In this document: positions 7,554 through 45,810 of the stretch, piece by piece | How positions within the stretch are numbered: the stretch's first letter is position 1 | Layout of the letters: each line of letters begins with the position of its first letter | Assembly (NCBI RefSeq): GCF_965641715.1 | Contig: NZ_OZ282456.1 | Strand: one strand, 5' to 3' | Length of the DNA: 46,125 bases | DNA from: Escherichia coli | GTDB taxonomy: Bacteria > Pseudomonadota > Gammaproteobacteria > Enterobacterales > Enterobacteriaceae | Program-made: the position numbers and the translations under genes | The notes under the pieces: model-generated | Databases searched by the model: none | The model's input: the letters and a program-made list of their open reading frames with translations, nothing else | Told to the model about the DNA's origin: nothing

Positions 7554-8207
7554 TTACGCGGCAGTAGTCAGAGCCTCAAGCTGGTTGATAATCCCCTGAA
7601 TAACGTCGTCTGCCTTTTTGCGTGGCGCAACGTATGAGCATTCAATGAGGCTTAAGCCCTTATCCTGAGCTTTGCTCAGAGCTGGCTTGTGGGGAATGTA
7701 CTTATCGACAACAAAGTATGGCGTATTAGCCAGGTACTCTTGGGCTTCAATATAGTCAGCTTCATTTTCAGCCGCGCCGGAAAACACCATGCAAATTTTC
7801 TTGATTGGCACACCCTTTTTAACGATGCCGTGAGCAGTGTTAACGGTGGTTTCCAGGTCATCGGTAGAGAATCGGGTTGGCAAAATAACCATATCCAGAA
7901 ATTCAGATAGCTTCGGTACTGATTCAGATGCGTAGGCACCGCCATCAACGATAACCAGGTCGTATACTTCTGATTCGATGATTTTCTGGACTTGTGATGG
8001 TGTGCCGCACGGCTGCGCCGCGATTGCTGGTTCGATATTGTTGGCCATTCTGCGTTGTACCCAACGCGTTACCGTTCCGTTAAGCACATCCATATCGATC
8101 AGGCATACATTCCAGCCAGCCTTTGCATAAGCAACTGCTAAAGCACGGGCAATTGTTGATTTGGTTACGCCGCCTTTTCCGTTGAAAATACCTACAGAGA
8201 TAGTCAT
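7554..8207 (-). CDS. parA: Partition ATPase ParA/ParF (Walker-type)
   Basis: Deviant Walker A GKGGVTKST near the N-terminus; ATG at 8207 has GGAG 9 nt upstream (track start 8222 lacks SD). Confidence 0.8.
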   Translation of the reverse strand: MTISVGIFNGKGGVTKSTIARALAVAYAKAGWNVCLIDMDVLNGTVTRWVQRRMANNIEPAIAAQPCGTPSQVQKIIESEVYDLVIVDGGAYASESVPKLSEFLDMVILPTRFSTDDLETTVNTAHGIVKKGVPIKKICMVFSGAAENEADYIEAQEYLANTPYFVVDKYIPHKPALSKAQDKGLSLIECSYVAPRKKADDVIQGIINQLEALTTAA

Positions 8208-8222
8208 TTGTCGAGACTCCAT

Positions 8223-15812: not shown

Positions 15813-15888
15813 GGCCCCTTAGCTCAGTGGTTAGAGCAGGCGACTCATAATCGCACGGTCATCGGTTCAAATCCGGTAGGGGCCACCA
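15813..15888 (+). tRNA. tRNA with CAT anticodon (Met by anticodon; sequence resembles the lysidine-type tRNA-Ile2)
   Basis: Manual cloverleaf: 7-bp acceptor stem GGCCCCT/AGGGGCC, D-arm GCTC-AGTGGTTA-GAGC, anticodon loop CTCATAA, T-loop GGTTCAAATCC, 3' CCA encoded. Confidence 0.8.
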
Positions 15889-16195: not shown

Positions 16196-16783
16196 ATGGA
16201 GGCAATTGCATTGTTTAATCTGATTTATGCAGATCCCCCCTGGGAATACAAAGACAAGTGTAAGGATGGGAATCGTGGAGCTGGTTTTAAGTATCCAACG
16301 ATGAAAGCTGAGGAGATTGCTCGTATTCCTGTCTGGCAGCTTGCTAATCCTGAATCGTGTTTGTTGGCCATGTGGTGGGTTCCGACTCAGCCAGAAGAAG
16401 CGTTGCTGGTGGTTAAAGCATGGGGATTCAGGCTGATGACCATGAAGGGCTTCACATGGAACAAATGTGGTAGCCGACAACCAGATAAGCTGGTGATGGG
16501 GATGGGGCATATGACTCGTGCAAACAGTGAAGATTGCTTGTTTGCGGTAAAAGGCAAACTGCCGACCCGTCTTGATGCGGGGATCATTCAGTCGTTTACA
16601 TCGCCTCGTCTGGAGCATTCTCGGAAGCCTGATGTGGTCCGTGACAAGCTGGTAAAGCTGTTAGGTGATGTTCCTCGTATTGAGCTGTTTGCTCGCGGTG
16701 ATTTACCTGATGGCTGGCATGGCTGGGGCAACCAGTGCAATGGAGGTATCCAGTTGCATGATGCTCTCTGGCAAGTGGCATAG
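16196..16783 (+). CDS. MT-A70-family DNA N6-adenine methyltransferase
   Basis: Catalytic DPPW motif near the N-terminus (IYADPPWEY), size about 195 aa. Confidence 0.75.
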   Translation: MEAIALFNLIYADPPWEYKDKCKDGNRGAGFKYPTMKAEEIARIPVWQLANPESCLLAMWWVPTQPEEALLVVKAWGFRLMTMKGFTWNKCGSRQPDKLVMGMGHMTRANSEDCLFAVKGKLPTRLDAGIIQSFTSPRLEHSRKPDVVRDKLVKLLGDVPRIELFARGDLPDGWHGWGNQCNGGIQLHDALWQVA

Positions 16784-19036: not shown

Positions 19037-19660
19037 ATGACAAAACATCTTAATGTGGTTTCTTTACCACTTTCTGTGTTGATTGGTTATGAAAAGAACG
19101 CTCGCACACACTCCGTGGAGCAGGTAGATCAGATTGTTGCCAGCATACAGGAGTACGGATGGACTAATCCGATCCTGATAGACGAGAACAACGTTGTAAT
19201 TGCTGGTCATGGTCGAATTGCTGCGGCCACTCAGTTGGGGATGGATGATGTTCCCTGCATTGTTCTGGAAGGGCTAACGGAGAATCAGAAGAAGGCATAT
19301 CGTCTGGCCGACAACCGTATTCCGCTGAATGCTGGTTGGGATGAAGAGCTGTTAAGCGCGGAGCTTGCAGATCTTGCGGCCGATGATTTTGCTCTGGACT
19401 CAATTGGTTTTACTCAGCGCGAACTGGATAACTTATTGAGTGCGGCAGTCTACGATGACACAGAGGGTATGGATATCCCATTTGAGAAGGATGAGGCCAA
19501 ATCAGGCGTAAAAGTTCAGTACCTGTCATTTGGAGGTCATAAAATCCCGGCAACGGATGAGGAAGCGGATCGTTTTGACTGCGCGGTGTCTCGTTATGTT
19601 GATGATAATGGCAGCTATATCGGATTTGTATCCGCATTGCTGGCTGGGGAGGTGTGCTGA
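19037..19660 (+). CDS. ParB N-terminal (ParB/Srx-like nuclease) domain protein
   Basis: Motifs YEKNARTHS and VIAGHGR typical of ParB-like domains found in phages; paralogous to 22327-22917. Confidence 0.6.
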   Translation: MTKHLNVVSLPLSVLIGYEKNARTHSVEQVDQIVASIQEYGWTNPILIDENNVVIAGHGRIAAATQLGMDDVPCIVLEGLTENQKKAYRLADNRIPLNAGWDEELLSAELADLAADDFALDSIGFTQRELDNLLSAAVYDDTEGMDIPFEKDEAKSGVKVQYLSFGGHKIPATDEEADRFDCAVSRYVDDNGSYIGFVSALLAGEVC

Positions 19661-21033
19661 TGCTTCACCTCAATTACGACATAACGCACCTACGCGGCGC
19701 GGAATATAACCCGCGTTTTATCGGTGAGGATGATCTTGCGAGGCTGGCAGAAAGCGTCAGGGAGCTGGGGCTTGTGAAGCCATTGATAGTGCGCGGCGAT
19801 TTGCTGGTGGCGGGACACCAAAGGACGAAGGCGCTACGTAAGTTGGGAATAACGCGTGCTGCGGTGTATGTGTTGCCCTGTGAAACGACGGTATACGACG
19901 AAGTACGGTTTAACCAACTGCATAACGGAACGGATTTTGATAGCGGAGATGAGCGTTGCAGGGTGTCCGGTCTGGAAGATAAGCATGGTTTTGTTCAGGT
20001 ATCGGCAAGCCAGATCTCAGGCAATATGCGCGCGAAAATGGCATATGTTCGAAAGAACATAGCGGAACTGGTTATCAAGTATGGTCCGTGGGGGGGTTGT
20101 GTTGCGACTCAGTCTGGCGAGGTTATTCACTGTGCTCAGTATGCATTAGCAGCGAAGATGACGCGCACACCGCTAACGGTGTTTGTGATCCCTGATGTTG
20201 AGAAGGAAAAATACCAAAGTTATCTGAATAAAACTTATGGTGTATTTGAGTATTCTCATCTGGAGAAAACAACATACATCCAGACGTATGCGCAGCTTAT
20301 GCGGTTGCGTAATGGTGGCAGCCTGAAATCAAACCTGTATGAGTCGTTGATCCTCCCGATCATTGCCAAGACGCCAAGAGGAATTGATTTTGGTTCGGGG
20401 CAGGGAGACTACGCGCGAATGCTCAGGGCAAAGGGGTATAACCTGCATGATCTCGAGCTTTTCCGCCGTAAGGGCGCAGGAAACACTCTGGATAGGGCTG
20501 CAACAAACCGAATGATTGATACGCTGGTGGACGACTTAAAAACGCGAGGGCGTTACGACTACGTGATTTGCGATAGCGTTTTGAACTCGGTCGATAGTGT
20601 CGAGGCTGAATGGTCCGTTCTGACGGTTCTGAAAGGCCTGTGTAAAGCTGGTGGGTCAATATTCTTTTCTGGTCGTAGCCGTGGAGAGCTGGAAACAGTC
20701 CTGAAGCAAACACAAGCGGCGAGTTCCAAAAGCCGGCTTTATTTTATTGATCATAACGGTTTTACCGCGTTGTACCGGAAGGGGCACTGGTTTTACCAGA
20801 AGTTTCACTCTGATGATGAAGTGAAGCAGTTGTGTCGTGTACATGGTTTCAGGATTAAGCGGTCAATATTCAACTGTAAGAGCTGGTATTTGCACGTCAT
20901 TAACGATGATTCCCTTAGTTGGGCGAGTCTGGAGAAAGCTGTTCGTTTTGAGTTTGAGTTGCCGTTGCCTGGTGGTTCAACAATCGGACGATCTGATGAT
21001 GTGCTGGCGGCTTTCCGGCCGTTGATTAAGTAG
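19654..21033 (+). CDS. ParB-N-terminal-domain protein fused to a Rossmann-type SAM methyltransferase-like domain (no DPPY/NPPY motif seen)
   Basis: N-terminal LVAGHQRTKA ParB-like motif; GIDFGSGQGDYA glycine-rich motif and YDYVICDSVL; no PP[YFW] catalytic motif found by eye. Confidence 0.45.
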   Translation: MLMLHLNYDITHLRGAEYNPRFIGEDDLARLAESVRELGLVKPLIVRGDLLVAGHQRTKALRKLGITRAAVYVLPCETTVYDEVRFNQLHNGTDFDSGDERCRVSGLEDKHGFVQVSASQISGNMRAKMAYVRKNIAELVIKYGPWGGCVATQSGEVIHCAQYALAAKMTRTPLTVFVIPDVEKEKYQSYLNKTYGVFEYSHLEKTTYIQTYAQLMRLRNGGSLKSNLYESLILPIIAKTPRGIDFGSGQGDYARMLRAKGYNLHDLELFRRKGAGNTLDRAATNRMIDTLVDDLKTRGRYDYVICDSVLNSVDSVEAEWSVLTVLKGLCKAGGSIFFSGRSRGELETVLKQTQAASSKSRLYFIDHNGFTALYRKGHWFYQKFHSDDEVKQLCRVHGFRIKRSIFNCKSWYLHVINDDSLSWASLEKAVRFEFELPLPGGSTIGRSDDVLAAFRPLIK

Positions 21034-21049: not shown

Positions 21050-21769
21050 GTGGCTGACAGAATTGAGATAAAGATGGATTTTTCTTCTCAGGATATTCAA
21101 CGACAACTCCAGCGCCTTGAAGAACGCGAATTGCCGTTCGCAATGGCGCTTGCGGCAACCAGAACGGCAAAGGCTTCTCAGGCTGCGATTAAGAATGAAA
21201 TTAATCGGGTATTTGACAGGCCCACGCCGTGGATTCAGAACTCTACTTACGTTTTGGCCGCAAAGAAGAGTGATCCTACAGCCATTGTGTATGCTCGTGA
21301 ATGGGGAGGAACGCCAGCCCCTGTAACGTTGACTCCGCAAATCGAAGGTGGCCAACGACAGTACAAACGCTCAGAAGGGGCGCTAAGGGCTGGTGGATAT
21401 TTGCCTAACGGCTGGCAGCTTGCTCCTGGTCCCGGCGCAAAGCTGGACAAATACGGGAATATTTCGCGGGGGCAATTACAGCAGGTCTTATCTGGCCTAA
21501 GAGTTCAGCGAGATGCGCATCAAAATCGCCGTCAGGGCAAGCCTACGGAGTTTTTTGTTGTTCGACCTGGTACAAGTAACCCGCTTCAACCAGGCGTCTG
21601 GCAGCGCGTTGGGCGGCGTCCTACGTTGATCCTTACGTTTATCCAGCAACCTAACTATTCGCAGCGTCTTGATTGGCATGGCGTGGCGCTGCGTGCTGGT
21701 GAGGATGCGTTTGCTGATGAAGTCACAAAGGCTATTGATGACATTCTTTCTAAGACCTTCTCTCGTTAA
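21050..21769 (+). CDS. Hypothetical protein
   Basis: 239-aa ORF between the ParB-like genes; no recognisable family. Confidence 0.4.
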   Translation: MADRIEIKMDFSSQDIQRQLQRLEERELPFAMALAATRTAKASQAAIKNEINRVFDRPTPWIQNSTYVLAAKKSDPTAIVYAREWGGTPAPVTLTPQIEGGQRQYKRSEGALRAGGYLPNGWQLAPGPGAKLDKYGNISRGQLQQVLSGLRVQRDAHQNRRQGKPTEFFVVRPGTSNPLQPGVWQRVGRRPTLILTFIQQPNYSQRLDWHGVALRAGEDAFADEVTKAIDDILSKTFSR

Positions 21770-21959
21770 TCATCGTGTGGTTGATGGTGTTGTTATGCAG
21801 AGTGTATTCACTGTGTTCTGTAGTGTCGCTCGCTGGCTGTCTGTGGGGGAGCACGAGCATCGTTTCATCGTCCGGCAGAATTGGGTCCTTCTGGCCAAAA
21901 GCGTTGGATGCGGGTCATTCGAACCCCGATGTTCGGCTAGCTAAACGTGAAAAAAGTTA

Positions 21960-22326
21960 GGTTAAAAGTTGCGGTAAAAGAAATTTACTCATCTCATTGA
22001 AAAATATCGGGAAAACGTGATTTTTTGCTGTATTTGTGCTGGTAAAAAGAAAGTAGAAAATTTTCTTTTAGATCATCAAGATACGCGCAGATCTTTAACC
22101 AATGTGATGTTGTTCTGATAAAAATCGTTATAAATCATGCAAATACATCCAATCTTTTAACCAAAACACTATCGCAAGATCCTTTTTACTTATAAAAACT
22201 TAATAAAATCATATAATTATGCTGGTTTGTGTGATTTTTTATGAGTAAAAAGATCGTCATTTTTCTCTTTTAGTATCAATAAGTTAAACAGTTTTCTTTA
22301 ACCTGTTGTGTTATGGCGGTTAAAAA
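21960..22326. other. AT-rich non-coding region with GATC-containing motifs and short direct repeats; candidate cos/packaging or regulatory region
   Basis: About 370 bp without a credible ORF; AGATCA, AGATCT, AGATCC and AGATCG motifs; ATCTTTTAACCAA repeated at 22087-22100 and 22151-22164. Confidence 0.3.
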
Positions 22327-22917
22327 ATGGCTCTAAAAATCGAATATTTACCAGTCGGTAAGCTGCTCAGATATGCCAAAAATTCACGGACTCATTCAGA
22401 TGAGCAAGTTGAACAGTTGGTGAACAGTATCCGTGAGTTCGGTTTCACTAATCCTGTGCTGATCGATGAAAAGAATGAACTGATTGCGGGGCATGGGCGG
22501 CTTGCAGCAGCCGAAATTCTGGAAATGGATAAAGTTCCGGCGATTCGGTTGAGTAACCTTTCTGAAAAACAGAAGAAGGCGTACAGGATTGCAGATAACA
22601 AGCTGGCCTTAAATGCTGGCTGGGATATGCAGCTTCTGGCCGAAGAAGTCAAAGAGTTAATGGATGATGATTTTGATATTGATCTGCTTGGGTTTAATGA
22701 TGCAGAGCTTGACGAAATGTTAAGCGATGAACAGCCGCAGGAAGAAGACGATAATTCTTCCCCTGTTGTTCAAATTAAGTACCTGGCTATTGATCAAGAA
22801 CGTATTCCCGCGACGGATATGGAAATTGCATTGTTGCTGGATGTTTATCGTCAGTACCACGACGCGCATGAAACGCATGAGGGATTTGTTCAGTATCTTG
22901 CTAATGGTTGCAAGTAA
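22327..22917 (+). CDS. ParB N-terminal (ParB/Srx-like nuclease) domain protein
   Basis: YAKNSRTHS and LIAGHGR motifs; similar over about 130 aa to the 19037-19660 product. Confidence 0.6.
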   Translation: MALKIEYLPVGKLLRYAKNSRTHSDEQVEQLVNSIREFGFTNPVLIDEKNELIAGHGRLAAAEILEMDKVPAIRLSNLSEKQKKAYRIADNKLALNAGWDMQLLAEEVKELMDDDFDIDLLGFNDAELDEMLSDEQPQEEDDNSSPVVQIKYLAIDQERIPATDMEIALLLDVYRQYHDAHETHEGFVQYLANGCK

Positions 22918-23468
22918 TGGCCATCGTCAGTAAGTCAGAGTTTGCCCGCCGGAAAGGTATTTCTCCGGCAATGGTTACGAAGCTCTGTCGTTCCGGTCGC
23001 ATTCCAGTGCTGAAAAGCGGCAAGCTGGATTTTGATAAAGCCAGTGCGGCTTATGAAGCGAGCCGACAGGTTGGTCGTGAGGTATCTGCTGAAAATGGAA
23101 AAAGAGGGCATGGGATATCTTCGGAACAACCAGAGTTACCCGCTGATGATGCCGGATTAGCTGGTGGTACTTCCGGTGTTGCGGTGCAATTCAACAAGGC
23201 TAAGACCGCAGAAAAAATTTATCAGGCAAAGCTGAAACGCCTTGAATTTGAAGAAAAGGAAGGCTCTCTCATCGCTAAAGATGCGGTCAGGGATGATGCA
23301 TTTCTGGCAGCTAATGAATTGCGTAGCCGCTTATTTAGTATTGCTCCAAGAGCAGCTCCCCGTTGTGAAGGCAAAACAGCCAGGGAGATCGAACGCATTA
23401 TTGAAGACGAGATTAATTTTGCGCTTCAGGCGCTCCAGGAATCCCGATTTATTAAGCAGGAAGAATAA
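22917..23468 (+). CDS. Terminase small subunit
   Basis: N-terminal HTH-like SKSEFARRKGISPAMVTKLCRSGRIP; immediately upstream of the large terminase; ATG at 22917 overlaps the upstream stop (TAATG). Confidence 0.5.
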   Translation: MAIVSKSEFARRKGISPAMVTKLCRSGRIPVLKSGKLDFDKASAAYEASRQVGREVSAENGKRGHGISSEQPELPADDAGLAGGTSGVAVQFNKAKTAEKIYQAKLKRLEFEEKEGSLIAKDAVRDDAFLAANELRSRLFSIAPRAAPRCEGKTAREIERIIEDEINFALQALQESRFIKQEE

Positions 23469-23473
23469 ACCTC

Positions 23474-25330
23474 ATGGGCGAAACAGTATGGAGCACCGCT
23501 TTTTTCCGTGCGCTTCGCCCTAAATCACGGCTAACTGTTTCCGAATGGGCTGATAAGTATCGTCATGTAGCGCCGGGAACGTCTCCAGAGCCAGGGCCGT
23601 GGCGTACAAGCCGAGTGCCATATTTGCGTGAACCAATGGATGTTATTGGTGACGCTGATACAGAAACAGTAGTGATGCAATGTAGCTCGCAAATTGGTAA
23701 ATCCGAATTACAGCTAAATGTTATGGGTTACTTTGCAGATCAGGAGCCATCTCCTCAGTTGATGATTTATCCAACGGTAGAGGCGGCTGAGGCTTTTTCA
23801 AAAGAGCGTATTGATCCGACGTTCAAATATTCCCCTGGTTTGAAACACAAGCTGCATGAAGGGAAAGAGGGGCGCGGTGCAGCCAAAAAGTCCAGCACGA
23901 CTATACGTATGAAGCATTACGCTGGTGGATATATAGCACTTGTTGGTGCTAATTCCCCAGCAGGTCTTGCATCCAGGCCAATTCGAATACTGTTAGCTGA
24001 TGAGATTGATCGTTACGGTGTGACGCAGGAGGGCGACCCACTAAAACTAGGTATTCAGCGTACTACCAACTTTCATAATCGTAAGAAAGTTTTTGTTTCT
24101 ACTCCTGTTTTGGAGGAAACGAGCAAAATCCACAAGTGGTTTAAGCTCTCCGATCAGCGTTACTACCATGTTCCTTGCCCATGTTGTGGCACCATGCAGG
24201 TGATGAAATGGTCGCAAGTCAGATGGGATAAGAGCGATTCAGGTGAGGCGTTACCGGAAACGGCCAGATATGAGTGCTGTGAGTGCGGCGGGATTATGCG
24301 CGGATCTGGTAAACCAGACGTTGATTGGTTGGCGAAGGGGGTATGGATAGCTGAACATACTGGAGTTAAAGGTATTGTTGGTTTTCATATTAACAGTCTT
24401 TACTCCCCGTGGGTTGCATTGTCAGAGCTGGTTGAAGAATTTACGGAAGCAACCAGAAACCGCGATAAAAATGGATTAATGGAGTTTATTAACCTTAAGC
24501 TGGGTGAGCCATGGAAAGAGGATGCTAAAGACGATATCGATCCTGAATACTTGTTGCAACGCAGAATAAGGTTTGAAGAGTTTTTACCAGATGATGTTTT
24601 ATTGTTAAGTGCTGGTGTTGACGTACAGGACACGTATTTAGTTTGTGAATTGGTCGGTTGGGGAAAAGGTAAGGAGTCATGGGGGATAGAATATAAAATA
24701 TTCCCAGGTGATCCCGCACAAGATGTTGTCTGGAAACAACTTGATGAATACTTACTCCGTAGCTGGTCATTCCGTGACGGTCGAAAATTACAGATTTCTT
24801 CCGTTTGTATTGACTCTGGTGGGCATTTTACGACAGAGGTATATCGCTTTACTAAGCCGAGAGAATCAAGGCGAATATACTCTATCAGGGGGCGTGGTGG
24901 GGTAGGTTTACCATTTATAGGAAAGCCAAGTAATAATAACCGTGTGGGTGCTATGTTGTTTAATTTGGGGGTTGATGATGGTAAAGGGACCATCATGGCA
25001 AGAATTAAACTACATGATCCTGGTCCTGGTTATATGCATTTCCCATTAGATTCTGACAGAGGATATGATACCGAATACTTTAAAGGATTATTATCAGAGA
25101 AGAAAATATTTGAATATAAAAATGGGCAGACAAAAGAAAAGTGGGTGAAAGTCTACGAGCGTAACGAGCCTCTTGATTGCCGTAACTATGCAACTGCCGC
25201 GATGGAAATTCTGAACCCTAATTTTAACTGGCTTGCCGAACAGGAAATGCGAGGTAATGTGTATGTGCAGAACTCGTCAGGTATACGTAGAAGACGCCGT
25301 AGAGTTATAAGTAAAGGCGTAACCATATAG
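23474..25330 (+). CDS. Terminase large subunit (lambda gpA-like)
   Basis: 618 aa; Walker A-like QCSSQIGKSE; overall layout of GpA-family terminases. Confidence 0.85.
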   Translation: MGETVWSTAFFRALRPKSRLTVSEWADKYRHVAPGTSPEPGPWRTSRVPYLREPMDVIGDADTETVVMQCSSQIGKSELQLNVMGYFADQEPSPQLMIYPTVEAAEAFSKERIDPTFKYSPGLKHKLHEGKEGRGAAKKSSTTIRMKHYAGGYIALVGANSPAGLASRPIRILLADEIDRYGVTQEGDPLKLGIQRTTNFHNRKKVFVSTPVLEETSKIHKWFKLSDQRYYHVPCPCCGTMQVMKWSQVRWDKSDSGEALPETARYECCECGGIMRGSGKPDVDWLAKGVWIAEHTGVKGIVGFHINSLYSPWVALSELVEEFTEATRNRDKNGLMEFINLKLGEPWKEDAKDDIDPEYLLQRRIRFEEFLPDDVLLLSAGVDVQDTYLVCELVGWGKGKESWGIEYKIFPGDPAQDVVWKQLDEYLLRSWSFRDGRKLQISSVCIDSGGHFTTEVYRFTKPRESRRIYSIRGRGGVGLPFIGKPSNNNRVGAMLFNLGVDDGKGTIMARIKLHDPGPGYMHFPLDSDRGYDTEYFKGLLSEKKIFEYKNGQTKEKWVKVYERNEPLDCRNYATAAMEILNPNFNWLAEQEMRGNVYVQNSSGIRRRRRRVISKGVTI

Positions 25331-43067: not shown

Positions 43068-43601
43068 ATGATGCACTTAAAAAATATTACTGCTGGCAAC
43101 CCTAAAACAAAAGAGCAATACCAGCTAACGAAACAATTTAACATCAAATGGCTTTATACAGAGGATGGGAAAAACTGGTATGAGGAACAAAAGAACTTTC
43201 AGCCTGATACGTTGAAAATGGTCTATGACCACAACAACGTTATTATTTGTATTGAAAAGGATGTTTCAGCAATTAATCCAGAAGGCGCAAGCGTCGTTGA
43301 GGTTCCTGATATTACAGCAAATCGCCGGGCTGATATTTCTGGTAAATGGATGTTCAAAGATGGCGTAGTGGTAAAGCGAACTTATACCGAGGAAGAGCAG
43401 AGGCAGCAGGCGGAAAATGAAAAGCAAAGCCTGCTACAGCTCGTTAGGGATAAAACCCAGCTATGGGACTCACAGCTACGGCTGGGCATCATTTCCGACG
43501 AGAATAAACAAAAATTAACCGAGTGGATGCTCTATGCGCAGAAAGTCGAATCTACAGACACCTCCAGCCTGCCAGTAACATTTCCCGAACAACCTGAATG
43601 A
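43068..43601 (+). CDS. Tail fibre assembly protein (current orientation)
   Basis: 177 aa; paralogous to the minus-strand 43630-44160 product (shared [13 protein letters not shown] and [12 protein letters not shown] segments). Confidence 0.7.
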
Positions 43602-43629
43602 GACAAGGCCCGATCGCGGGCCTTAATTT

Positions 43630-44160
43630 TTATTCAGGCTTTTGTGGCCATTCAGGATTTGCCGTATCCACACGGCTGACCAGAACACTGTAGCGTTCCC
43701 ATGCTTCCAGTCGTGTGCGTTCCTCGTCTGTTGCCATATTCAGCCTGACAGCGCGTTCCAGCGGCTGGATGACTGATTCAGCTTCGGAAAGCAATGCGGC
43801 CTTTTGTGATTCGCCTTGTTGTTGCTGTTCGTCTGCCGTATAAATCCGTTTAACTACAGCTCCATCCTTAAACATCCACTTTCCTGAATCATCAGCGCGG
43901 CGGTTGGCTGTAATATCAGGAACCTCAACGACGCTAAAACCTTCAGGGTTAAGCGTGGAGGCATCTTTAGTGATGGCGACAATAATATTATTTGCATCGT
44001 AAACAATCTTTATTGTGTCTGGCTGAAAGTTTTTCACTTCCTCATACCAGTTTTTATCGTCTTCGGACCATAACCAGATAACATCAAAATTCTTTGTTAG
44101 CTGATATTGTTCTTTCGTTTTAGGATTTCCAGACTTAATATTTTTTAAATGCTGCATCAT
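43630..44160 (-). CDS. Tail fibre assembly protein (alternative orientation)
   Basis: 176 aa; paralogue of 43068-43601 on the opposite strand. Confidence 0.7.
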
Positions 44161-45156
44161 TTACACCTGTGCGACGTTATACCATGTGCCATTGATGTAT
44201 TTTTGTATTGGCCTGAAGATGGCTTCATCATCGCCATCTACTTCACCAATGATTCTTAATCCGGTAATTGCGTGTCCGGCTTTTTCATAACGACCACCAC
44301 GCGCCATCAATTGAACAACTCGCGTACCCAGGCGAACATCTCTCACATATCTGGAATCAAAATTGCCATAGTTGCCAGGAATAACTTGCGAGCCACAAAG
44401 CCAGTTACCGTTATTGTCCATGTACGCCTGACCATCGGTGCCATTGGCTGTCCTTGAGTTATTAATCATGTAAAAACCAAACTGGTAGTTACCAAGTCCA
44501 CCGACAAAAAATTTGCGTTCTGCATGGTCTTGTCTTAACAAAGCCTGCGCAGAACTTGTTGATACTGCGTTTCTACCAAAAATGACATTCTGGTTTCGCA
44601 TATCAATCCATGAGGTTGAGCCACTATTAATAGCAAACCTGTTTGCATACACCCAGGCGTTAGTTGTTATATCTCCTGTAACATCCAGACCATGCCCCAT
44701 AGTTATGCGGCCAGTTCTGAGATTAAGCGTAAAGGGACGTAGTGGCCCTATATTACCATTTTCCCCCTCATTCTCTCGTGTAGGGATGATATGCAGGCAT
44801 TCTTCAGAACGGCGAAAAATGGCACCAAAAGATGAATTAAATATCCTCAGTGCATTGACTGTCGATATTTTTACTTCACTGCTGAAAAGAGCTTTAACAA
44901 GAACATACAAAGCATCCCATTTAAGATTCATCAGGTCTTTTGTTGTGGTGCTTTGTTTGCTTCTCCATTTGAAATATTCATTGCCGTTGTCGCCTGTCTC
45001 AAACCACATGTATGAATCAGTGTCACCATCGGCATCATTTTTAAATCCAATCTTCGCCCAGTCAGTATTTCGAATCCAGGCAAGGATTGAGTCATTTTCA
45101 AAAGTAAGCCCACCGGACAAAGTATCGCCATTTTTTTGCACGGCGTTACCAGCCCT
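44161..45156 (-). CDS. Alternative tail-fibre C-terminal segment (silent; no own start, would fuse to the constant part after inversion)
   Basis: Open minus-strand frame continues to the crossover site and encodes LGLQETVN there, identical to the plus-strand fibre at the left site. Confidence 0.65.
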   Translation of the reverse strand, partial: RAGNAVQKNGDTLSGGLTFENDSILAWIRNTDWAKIGFKNDADGDTDSYMWFETGDNGNEYFKWRSKQSTTTKDLMNLKWDALYVLVKALFSSEVKISTVNALRIFNSSFGAIFRRSEECLHIIPTRENEGENGNIGPLRPFTLNLRTGRITMGHGLDVTGDITTNAWVYANRFAINSGSTSWIDMRNQNVIFGRNAVSTSSAQALLRQDHAERKFFVGGLGNYQFGFYMINNSRTANGTDGQAYMDNNGNWLCGSQVIPGNYGNFDSRYVRDVRLGTRVVQLMARGGRYEKAGHAITGLRIIGEVDGDDEAIFRPIQKYINGTWYNVAQV

Positions 45157-45157
45157 G

Positions 45158-45182
45158 TTTACCGTTTCCTGTAAACCGAGGT
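45158..45182. other. Right inversion crossover site (gix/cix-like)
   Basis: TTTACCGTTTCCTGTAAACCGAGGT; contains TTCCTGTAAACCGAGGTTTT, resembling the Gin/Cin crossover sequence as recalled. Confidence 0.7.
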
Positions 45183-45255
45183 TTTTGCGAATTGCCTCTG
45201 TGTCGTCTGAACGATATTTTTTCCCGCTTTTAGCAACAATCGCGGTTTAGAAAGT

Positions 45256-45810
45256 ATGCAATATGGTTATGCGAGGGTGTCAACTTTTGACCAGAATTTG
45301 GAATTACAACTGGAGGCGCTCAGGAGTTTAGGATGTGACCGGATTTTTGAAGATAAAATATCCGGTGCTAAATCAAAACGACCAGGACTTGATAAGCTAC
45401 TTAAGGTGTTACAGCCGGGCGATACGGTTATTGTCTGGAAGCTGGACCGAATGGGGCGTTCTCTGATTCATCTTGTTGATTTACTTAACCATTTTTTATC
45501 AAACAACATTGAGTTTATTTCGATTACGGAAGGGATAAAAATTAGCACTTCAATTGGCCGCTTTGCCTACACGATGCTGAGTGCAGTCGCAGAGATGGAG
45601 CGGGAAAATATGATTGAAAGAACGCGTGCAGGATTGGCGGTGGCAAGGGCTAACGGCAGGATAGGAGGACGCCGCTCAAAATTGGCACCAGAGCAATGGG
45701 AACAGATCGGAAGGCTTATTGCGAATGGTGTTTCACGTAAGCGGATAGCGATTATCTTCGATGTTACCTTATCCACGCTTTACCGCAGGTTTCCGGCTGG
45801 GAATCATTGA
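45256..45810 (+). CDS. Serine recombinase, DNA invertase (Gin/Cin/Hin family)
   Basis: 184 aa; N-terminal YARVSTFDQNLELQ with catalytic Ser context, C-terminal HTH; adjacent to the invertible segment. Confidence 0.85.
   Translation: MQYGYARVSTFDQNLELQLEALRSLGCDRIFEDKISGAKSKRPGLDKLLKVLQPGDTVIVWKLDRMGRSLIHLVDLLNHFLSNNIEFISITEGIKISTSIGRFAYTMLSAVAEMERENMIERTRAGLAVARANGRIGGRRSKLAPEQWEQIGRLIANGVSRKRIAIIFDVTLSTLYRRFPAGNH

Follow-up and report, generated by a model that had tools for sequence, protein, structure and literature searches.

A probable lambda-type cos site in an E. coli phage-plasmid

We analysed a 46,125 nt stretch of Escherichia coli DNA (RefSeq assembly GCF_965641715.1, contig NZ_OZ282456.1; hereafter the window) and found that positions 21881–22326 probably constitute the lambda-type cos of a temperate myovirus kept as a plasmid, a reading to which we assign a probability of roughly 0.78. 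It is favoured because deposited records of relatives end on one and the same 12-mer, because a cosQ heptamer stands at lambda spacing, and because the terminase is of the gpA/Nu1 type. The original prediction had placed a cos or pac region in the AT-rich gap at 21960–22326, ahead of the packaging genes; the fixed record ends, the heptamer and the terminase all speak for cos and against pac. The gap itself would be the cosB-like part of the site and not the place of cutting, since cosN and cosQ lie 36–77 bp upstream of its start, with cosN at 36–47 bp. On this reading, the packaging site and probable cohesive ends have been located for a widespread family of ~47–50 kb phage-plasmids of E. coli and Salmonella, and relatives in Vibrio share the site. 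The literature that we searched held no description of cos for the E. coli/Salmonella family or for the Vibrio relatives, and the published descriptions of the latter (PMC11432961, PMC5690320) do not discuss it.

The window is a complete E. coli phage-plasmid. A sequence search found it identical to the E. coli plasmid CP055628.1 (46,125 bp), a whole circular phage-plasmid, and of 5,426 complete E. coli genomes searched, 71 carry close relatives, all but one of them on plasmids of 47–57 kb. The quality-control strain ATCC 25922 carries a relative that is ~99 % identical in the cos/terminase region and is annotated with plasmid RepA, ParA and a toxin–antitoxin pair alongside full myovirus head, tail and lysis genes; it is this combination of plasmid genes with a full myovirus gene set that identifies the element as a phage-plasmid. 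The 'pSLy3' phage-plasmid group was considered as an identity and rejected, pSLy3 being a 114 kb SSU5-like element; other papers on phage-plasmids that we consulted do not mention the family. The Yersinia phages vB_YpM_39, vB_YpM_41 and vB_YpM_44, with ~97–99 % identity across the cos/terminase region, are the free-phage form of the E. coli element, and a Salmonella lineage is ~70 % identical to it in the cos region. Further relatives include the Vibrio myophages X29, phi 2, XM1, PVP-XSN, R19R, R20L and Rostov 7, for which the name 'Weiviridae' has been proposed (PMC11432961), and several lineages that we designated by contig (L032, L038, L058, L062, L108 and L116).

Record ends converge on a single 12 nt segment

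We inferred the DNA ends from the break points of deposited records of relatives. Eleven phage-derived records, three from Yersinia, seven from Vibrio and one IMG/VR contig, break at or within one homologous 12-mer, which in the window is GGTCATTCGAAC at 21913–21924 (+ strand) and represents the putative cosN. The break falls at 21912|21913 in the deposited sequences of vB_YpM_39 and vB_YpM_41, which end in ...GTTGGATGCG and begin with GGTCATTCGAAC followed by CCCGATG, and at 21924|21925 in that of vB_YpM_44, which ends in ...GCGGGTCATTCGAAC and begins with CCCGATG. The break points of the Yersinia phages are exactly 12 nt apart and bracket 21913–21924. The homologous 12-mer of the Vibrio myophages is GGTGCTCGCGAC, and their linear records also break there: PVP-XSN, R20L and XM1 start at its first base, XM1 carries the 12-mer at both ends (with one A added at the right end), R19R breaks 10 nt into it, and the breaks of X29 and phi 2 fall after 11 nt of it. 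The seven Vibrio records represent six phages, as X29 was deposited twice. In a further lineage, the IMG/VR contig L058 starts at the first base of its own 12-mer. Six of the 11 records start at the left edge of the segment, one of these also ending at the right edge, and one starts just past the right edge. As a set they span two host orders, several separate submissions and one metagenome. For X29, 'defined ends' have been reported on the basis of read coverage (PMC5690320). In the record ends of these relatives we found neither ends elsewhere nor headful packaging, the two outcomes that had been named as contrary to a fixed end in this region.

To judge from these records, the shared break segment marks a cos site whose cohesive end is ~12 nt long. 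Nicks would fall between 21912 and 21913 on the top strand and between 21924 and 21925 on the bottom strand, and the resulting ends would be 5′-protruding, as the 12-mer at both ends of the XM1 record fits filled-in 5′ overhangs and as precedent in the gpA family suggests. A scan of genome contigs with the cosN pattern gave mostly chance matches, the only true relatives being the metagenome-assembled contigs L108 and L116, and literature searches on the Yersinia phages and on the 12-mer itself returned nothing relevant.

These ends bear directly on the idea that the gap is a P1-type pac site controlled by Dam methylation and serving headful packaging, which we regard as extremely improbable. 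As predicted originally, the gap does contain four AGATC motifs, starting at 22070, 22089, 22177 and 22251, and relative to dinucleotide-preserving shuffles it is enriched in both GATC (4 versus 0.71, P=0.003) and AGATC (4 versus 0.17, P<2e-4), with a GATC count exceeded by no other 367 bp stretch of the window. It also resembles P1 pac in that GATC-containing repeats adjoin packaging genes, and the element encodes MT-A70 and ParB_N-methyltransferase proteins. P1, however, packages by headful from a Dam-controlled cut made by PacA/PacB, whereas the eleven records considered here have fixed ends at one 12 nt segment and the large terminase is of the gpA type. Moreover, of the four GATCs the Salmonella lineage retains just those at 22178 and 22252, two lie in a segment that appears dispensable (see below), and vB_YpM_41 has lost one.

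A cosQ-like heptamer and a conserved core flank the cut

The cosQ-like heptamer GGGTCCT is located at 21883–21889 (+ strand) and is unique in the window on both strands. It is identical to the heptamer at lambda positions 48473–48479, which we take to be cosQ itself, and in both genomes it stands 23 nt from the left nick or end. It is also present in the Salmonella, Vibrio XM1-type and L038 lineages. In lambda-like phages, cosQ is described as a highly conserved 7 bp site that is needed to end packaging (Feiss et al., PMC4669245, a source that gives neither its sequence nor its coordinates), and by analogy GGGTCCT at 21883–21889 may be the packaging-termination signal of the E. coli element. 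In the X29/Rostov 7 lineage the heptamer is one base closer to the left cut, at 22 nt (Rostov 7 ~1085–1126; X29 right end); this lineage may use a slightly different stagger, or its records may be off by one base.

To the right of cosN, a conserved spacer beginning with CCCGATGTTCGGCTAGCTAAAC (21925–21957, + strand) occupies the position of I2 in lambda. The pattern CCCG-N4-TCG-N-CTAGCT within it is common to the E. coli, Salmonella, Vibrio, L032/L058, L062, L038, L108 and L116 lineages. Over 21881–21957, comprising cosQ, cosN and the I2 equivalent, the Salmonella and E. coli lineages are 86 % identical, and this homology begins abruptly at 21881. To its left homology is absent: the 110 bp that separate cosQ from the upstream gene (21770–21880), of ordinary G+C content, have only 32 % identity to the Salmonella lineage.

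The terminase is of the gpA/Nu1 type

The gene order downstream of the gap is ParB_N protein, small terminase, gpA-type large terminase, gpW-like adaptor and portal. The large terminase (TerL; 23474–25330, + strand) matches Pfam GpA_ATPase (7.1e-76) and GpA_nuclease (1.1e-84); it is 63–65 % identical to TerL of the Vibrio X29/XM1 type and ~28 % identical to gpA of lambda-like phages and N15 over 92 % of its length (tblastn). The small terminase (TerS; 22917–23468, + strand, with ATG at 22917 and an alternative TTG at 22908) belongs to the Nu1 family, matching phrog_57 over its full length (E 1.4e-41), a profile that lambda Nu1 matches at 1.3e-76. Its N-terminal 33 residues match the winged helix of P2 Cox (4lhf, E 0.009), and a search of solved structures with TerS alone returned no match. 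The first gene after cos encodes a 196 aa protein with a ParB/Srx N-domain (22327–22917, + strand; Pfam ParB_N, phrog_620). A ParB-like gene also directly precedes TerS in the Salmonella, Vibrio, L058 and L062 relatives, and a literature search linking ParB-like proteins to cos packaging returned nothing specific.

The AT-rich spacer carries a family of repeated sites

The gap at 21960–22326 comprises 367 bp with 28.3 % G+C, versus 44.3 % for the window, and holds no open reading frame longer than 33 aa on either strand, in agreement with the original prediction of an AT-rich, non-coding interval. An Rfam scan of 21600–22500 gave no match, and blastn of the gap against phages, set for distant matches, returned the same family only. 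The gap is nevertheless structured by approximately nine sites of the form GGT(T)AAA(A)G / CTTT(T)(A)ACC, in both orientations, which we labelled R1 to R9. A strict regular expression recovered six of them versus 0.27 in shuffles, the densest cluster in the window. The repeat that had been reported at 22087–22100 and 22151–22164 does exist as two related copies belonging to this family, yet they are unequal and their positions differ from those reported: ATCTTTTAACCAA is present once only, at 22152–22164, and the other copy, ATCTTTAACCAA, is one T shorter and lies at 22091–22102. Three of the four AGATC motifs are the ...AAAGATC tail of repeat sites (R4, R6 and R7).

The site nearest the cut, R1 (21958–21969, + strand), is the first GGTTAAAAG site and is identical at 12/12 positions in Salmonella. 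Its core, GGTTAAAAG, falls at bp 48–56 from the cohesive end, and the critical R3 of N15 is at bp 48–59 (PMC4669245). A GGTTAAC or GTTAACAC site occurs at the same distance in the L058, L062 and Vibrio lineages. R2 (21971–21981, + strand; GGTAAAAG) is kept at 8/11 positions in Salmonella and R3 (22039–22050, + strand; GGTAAAAAG) at 11/12, the latter within a conserved block at 22039–22052. The two copies reported originally correspond to R4 (22090–22102, − strand; GATCTTTAACCAA, reverse complement TTGGTTAAAGATC) and R5 (22152–22164, − strand), each kept at 8/13 positions. R6 (22178–22190, − strand; GATCCTTTTTACT; 11/13, block 22176–22189) and R7 (22243–22255, + strand; GAGTAAAAAGATC; 12/13, block 22241–22258) form the left and right arms of a conserved inverted pair; the centres of the arms are 65 bp from each other, and each arm has a conserved GATC. 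R8 (22292–22304, − strand; TTTTCTTTAACCT) is kept at 11/13 positions within block 22291–22303. R9 (22316–22327, + strand; GCGGTTAAAAAA) overlaps the ribosome-binding region and the start of the ParB-like gene, and its conservation may simply stem from translation signals.

An IHF-like site, AATCATATAATTA (22207–22219, + strand), occupies the midpoint between R6 and R7 and has one mismatch to the consensus WATCAANNNNTTR; Salmonella has AATCAGACAATTA at a matching distance from the nick (+283/+284). AATAAAATCA (22202–22213) is a block conserved between E. coli and Salmonella and, together with the R6 block, the R7 block and R8, is among the best-kept distal blocks. A perfect IHF consensus, TATCAATAAGTTA (22274–22286, + strand), is not kept in Salmonella and was given low weight. 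A/T tracts across the spacer are phased at 10.7 bp (power 8.4 versus 2.2±1.1, P=0.0005), which points to curved DNA.

Several observations weigh against a lambda-type cos with an extended cosB. The ends of the element are deduced from the break points of deposited records, the right-hand boundary is 10, 11 or 12 nt depending on the record, and the 5′ polarity draws on a single record, that of XM1 with its two copies of the 12-mer, and on precedent in the family. GGTCATTCGAAC matches the lambda cohesive end at just 3/12 positions. Pairwise BLASTP of TerS against lambda Nu1 found no similarity, so that their link is by profile only. Identity to Salmonella is 81 % inside the nine sites versus 55 % between them (Fisher P=1e-6), a contrast that is somewhat circular, as the site boundaries were partly chosen by eye after alignment. 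Of all the sites, the two copies flagged originally (R4 and R5) are some of the least well conserved, and R4 appears dispensable. IHF-like matches are not enriched (3 versus 1.5 in shuffles), and we gave weight only to the one that is positionally conserved. Finally, the ParB-like protein may itself bind DNA and is a second candidate for the binder of the repeats.

TerS is the binder of the GGT(T)AAAAG-type sites that we would propose. The alternative that the repeats form a parS-like loading array for the adjacent ParB-like protein, acting as a third factor in packaging or DNA modification, with TerS not the main binder, seems unlikely. Its appeal lies in the position of the gene, which is the first to follow cos in five lineages (E. 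coli, Salmonella, Vibrio, L058 and L062), and in the predicted structure of the protein, which matches Noc/ParB/KorB over ~140 columns and so extends past the nucleotide-binding N-domain. The Vibrio repeats contain the palindrome GTTAAC, and in L038 both the GGTTAA repeats and a ParB-like gene between cos and TerS are absent. However, no helix-turn-helix was detected by sequence and only ParB_N was matched, the model is of moderate confidence (pLDDT 72.5), and the E. coli sites are not palindromic. Covariation does not discriminate between the two proteins, since the recognition-helix region of TerS also changes with the type of repeat.

A different role for the gap would be mainly that of promoter and operator for the operon of ParB-like, terminase, head and tail genes, with cos confined to 21881–21970 and the repeats serving as operator or activator sites; if transcription began near 22224, R6 would lie at about −40 and R7 on the downstream side. 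This is compatible with a cosB function and deserves some consideration, although we are doubtful of it. Curved AT-rich DNA does precede the first gene of a ~20 kb co-oriented block, a perfect TATAAT stands at 22212–22217 between the conserved inverted repeats, where the IHF-like site overlaps it, and the short spacers of Vibrio and L058 hold sigma-70-like pairs, found by eye, that overlap the repeats (TTGCCT-17-TATACT and TTAACA-16-TATAAC). Yet a promoter scan found no + strand site in 21500–22600 and one in all versus 2.4 in shuffles, the TATAAT has no usable −35, and the corresponding Salmonella hexamer is GACAAT. There is no terminator between the gap and the co-oriented upstream genes, so that read-through is possible, as in lambda, and the location of the first repeat at the R3 position relative to the cut fits packaging and not transcription. 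The promoter alternative offered originally therefore stands as a possibility that the promoter scan did not support.

The spacer is probably duplicated and partly dispensable

From the nick to the start codon of the ParB-like gene, the spacer of the E. coli lineage measures 402 bp, as does that of the Salmonella lineage, and the two lineages are 63 % identical over it. It is far shorter in other relatives: 139–140 bp with five direct GTTAACA(C/G)TT repeats in the Vibrio lineage, 109 bp with two GGTTAAC in L058, ~92 bp with one GGTTAAC in L062, and 156 bp in L038 (IMGVR_UViG_3300045988_113531), where a different motif, GTGTTCATGAACAT, is found. L038 shares the cosQ–cosN core and is a natural comparison for the contribution of the ParB-like protein.

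The difference between 402 bp and 92–156 bp may be accounted for by an old tandem duplication of ~203 bp of the cosB/leader unit. Two diverged tandem units, at 21984–22134 and 22185–22337 (+ strand; offset ~203 bp), make up most of the AT-rich spacer and pair R3 with R7 and R4 with R8. Local self-alignment of the E. coli spacer scored 60 versus 26±4.7 in shuffles (z 7.3), and the best ungapped diagonal was at an offset of 203 in E. coli and likewise in Salmonella. Because the best gapped self-alignment in Salmonella is in another register, we consider the duplication probable and not shown. Relative to the window, the vB_YpM_44 genome lacks one contiguous 90 bp segment (22051–22140, no strand assigned) that holds R4, two GATCs and one TTGTTCTGATAAAAA copy. 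As vB_YpM_44 forms plaques, part of the first unit would be dispensable, provided that the deposited assembly is correct.

An alternative is that the DNA beyond ~21985 might largely be the decaying, functionless relic of a duplication, leaving only cosQ, cosN and R1–R2 to matter. The self-alignment signal, the 90 bp missing from the deposited vB_YpM_44 genome, the short spacers with which relatives manage and the identity of only 55 % outside the sites would all be expected of a relic. We nonetheless think this rather unlikely: a divergence of ~37 % between the E. coli and Salmonella lineages has left the spacer length unchanged at 402 bp, conserved islands of 12–18 bp occur far from cosN (22176–22189, 22202–22213, 22241–22258 and 22291–22303), and the phasing of A/T tracts is significant.

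A more speculative proposal, to which we give little credence, is that the distal duplicated spacer, with R6, the IHF-like site, R7 and the two conserved Dam sites, is a regulatory nucleoprotein switch of the plasmid prophage, loaded by the ParB/Srx-type protein, possibly in a nucleotide-dependent manner. If true, the switch could gate cos cleavage or expression of the late operon, for example by shielding the resident plasmid from cutting, and the ParB-like protein would be a third and so far unrecognized component of the lambda-type packaging initiation complex.

The remaining alternative is that the gap is a replication origin, as suggested in the original prediction, or a plasmid partition centromere. 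Curved, repeat-bearing AT-rich DNA beside a gene named for ParB might be expected of either in a plasmid-borne element, but both are highly improbable. A better candidate origin lies elsewhere, as repA occupies 1–849 and the only DnaA box in the window, TTATCCACA, is found just downstream at 991–999, whereas 21925–22326 contains no exact DnaA box; a clear iteron array was not found downstream of repA (840–1500). ParA is encoded elsewhere (7554–8222, − strand), accompanied in the ATCC 25922 relative by a small partner gene of its own, and no ParA adjoins the gap. The ParB-like protein is only 196 aa with ParB_N alone detected, and the sites are not palindromic. In addition, the Vibrio phages have integrases, are not described as plasmids, and share the arrangement of cos with a ParB-like gene (PMC5690320).

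Comparison with lambda, N15 and the Vibrio myophages

A lambda-type cos remains the reading that we prefer, and the likeness to lambda extends beyond the heptamer and its spacing. The order cosQ, cosN, putative cosB and terminase genes is the same, as are the 12 nt stagger, the CG directly left of the left nick and the presence of a repeat at the R3 position, and TerL and TerS belong to the same families. The inverted R6 and R7 around an IHF-like site recall R3-I1-R2 of lambda, a resemblance drawn here from sequence pattern alone. The differences are also clear. The GGT(T)AAAAG motif is unrelated to the R sequence of lambda, there are approximately nine sites over 370 bp here compared with three in 120 bp, and the R6–IHF–R7 module is ~265–340 bp from the cut compared with 50–120 bp. 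A ParB-like gene stands between cosB and terS, TerL is only ~28 % identical, and the host element is a myovirus phage-plasmid. The narrow lambda-like group has been defined by a 12-base cohesive end closely similar to GGGCGGCGACCT (Feiss et al., PMC4669245). As GGTCATTCGAAC matches GGGCGGCGACCT at 3/12 positions, the site would work like the cos of lambda whilst falling, by its predicted ends, outside that group.

N15 offers a parallel in layout. Its 'simple' cosB comprises a single critical R3 at bp 48–59 and a remote accessory rR2 (PMC4669245), and in the E. coli element likewise one promoter-proximal site (R1) at the same distance is the best conserved, whilst the distal sites look accessory and some dispensable. 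N15 is also a plasmid prophage. It differs in having lambda-like cohesive ends and a linear plasmid with telomeres, whereas the E. coli element is circular with RepA and has many more distal sites. The Vibrio myophages share a homologous cosQ–cosN–I2 core, records that break on the same 12-mer and the order ParB-like, TerS, TerL; they differ in their short spacer of five direct repeats, which has no AT-rich extension.

A model of packaging initiation can be proposed from these comparisons. During lytic growth, TerS and TerL would assemble on the AT-rich spacer, the cosB part, through the repeated GGT(T)AAAAG-type sites, beginning with that at bp 48–56, the R3 position of lambda and N15. Intrinsic curvature and IHF-type bending would assist, with the inverted R6 and R7 flanking the IHF-like site as in lambda; such a role for IHF is suggested by the conserved position of its putative site. 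TerL would then nick 12 bp apart at cosN to produce 5′-GGTCATTCGAAC cohesive ends, and DNA would be packaged rightwards, the cosB end first, until the next cos, where the GGGTCCT that precedes the cut by 23 nt would bring packaging to a stop. With the cosB/leader unit probably duplicated, the spacer would be partly redundant.

The cosQ heptamer and its spacing to the nick have been kept at ~28 % TerL identity, far outside the classical lambda group. With respect to a lambda-type cos there are two mild variations, namely a cosB that is extended and probably duplicated, and a ParB-like gene that separates it from terS. The element is of an ordinary kind and the understanding of cos packaging is unchanged by these findings. 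In practical terms, a known cos position indicates where annotators should open these genomes. It also provides a basis for cosmid-style packaging or transduction tools and for searches for satellites or plasmids that mimic this cos.

Other features of the element

The plasmid functions of the window comprise RepA (1–849), with the DnaA box at 991–999 as a candidate plasmid origin, and ParA. Upstream of the cos region, a tRNA-Met (CAT) gene at 15813–15888 lies between the lysis genes and the gene for an MT-A70-family DNA methyltransferase (16196–16783), which is itself upstream of the ParB-like genes; the equivalent position in the ATCC 25922 record is annotated as tRNA-Ile. The late region encodes three ParB_N-domain proteins in all (19037–19660, 19654–21033 and 22327–22917), and the middle one is fused to a methyltransferase domain. 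Towards the end of the window, tail-fibre assembly genes are present in opposite orientations (43068–43601, + strand; 43630–44160 and 44161–45141, − strand) and are adjoined by a serine recombinase at 45256–45810. The region 43068–45810 looks like an invertible host-range segment of the Gin/Cin type, as found in Mu and P1.

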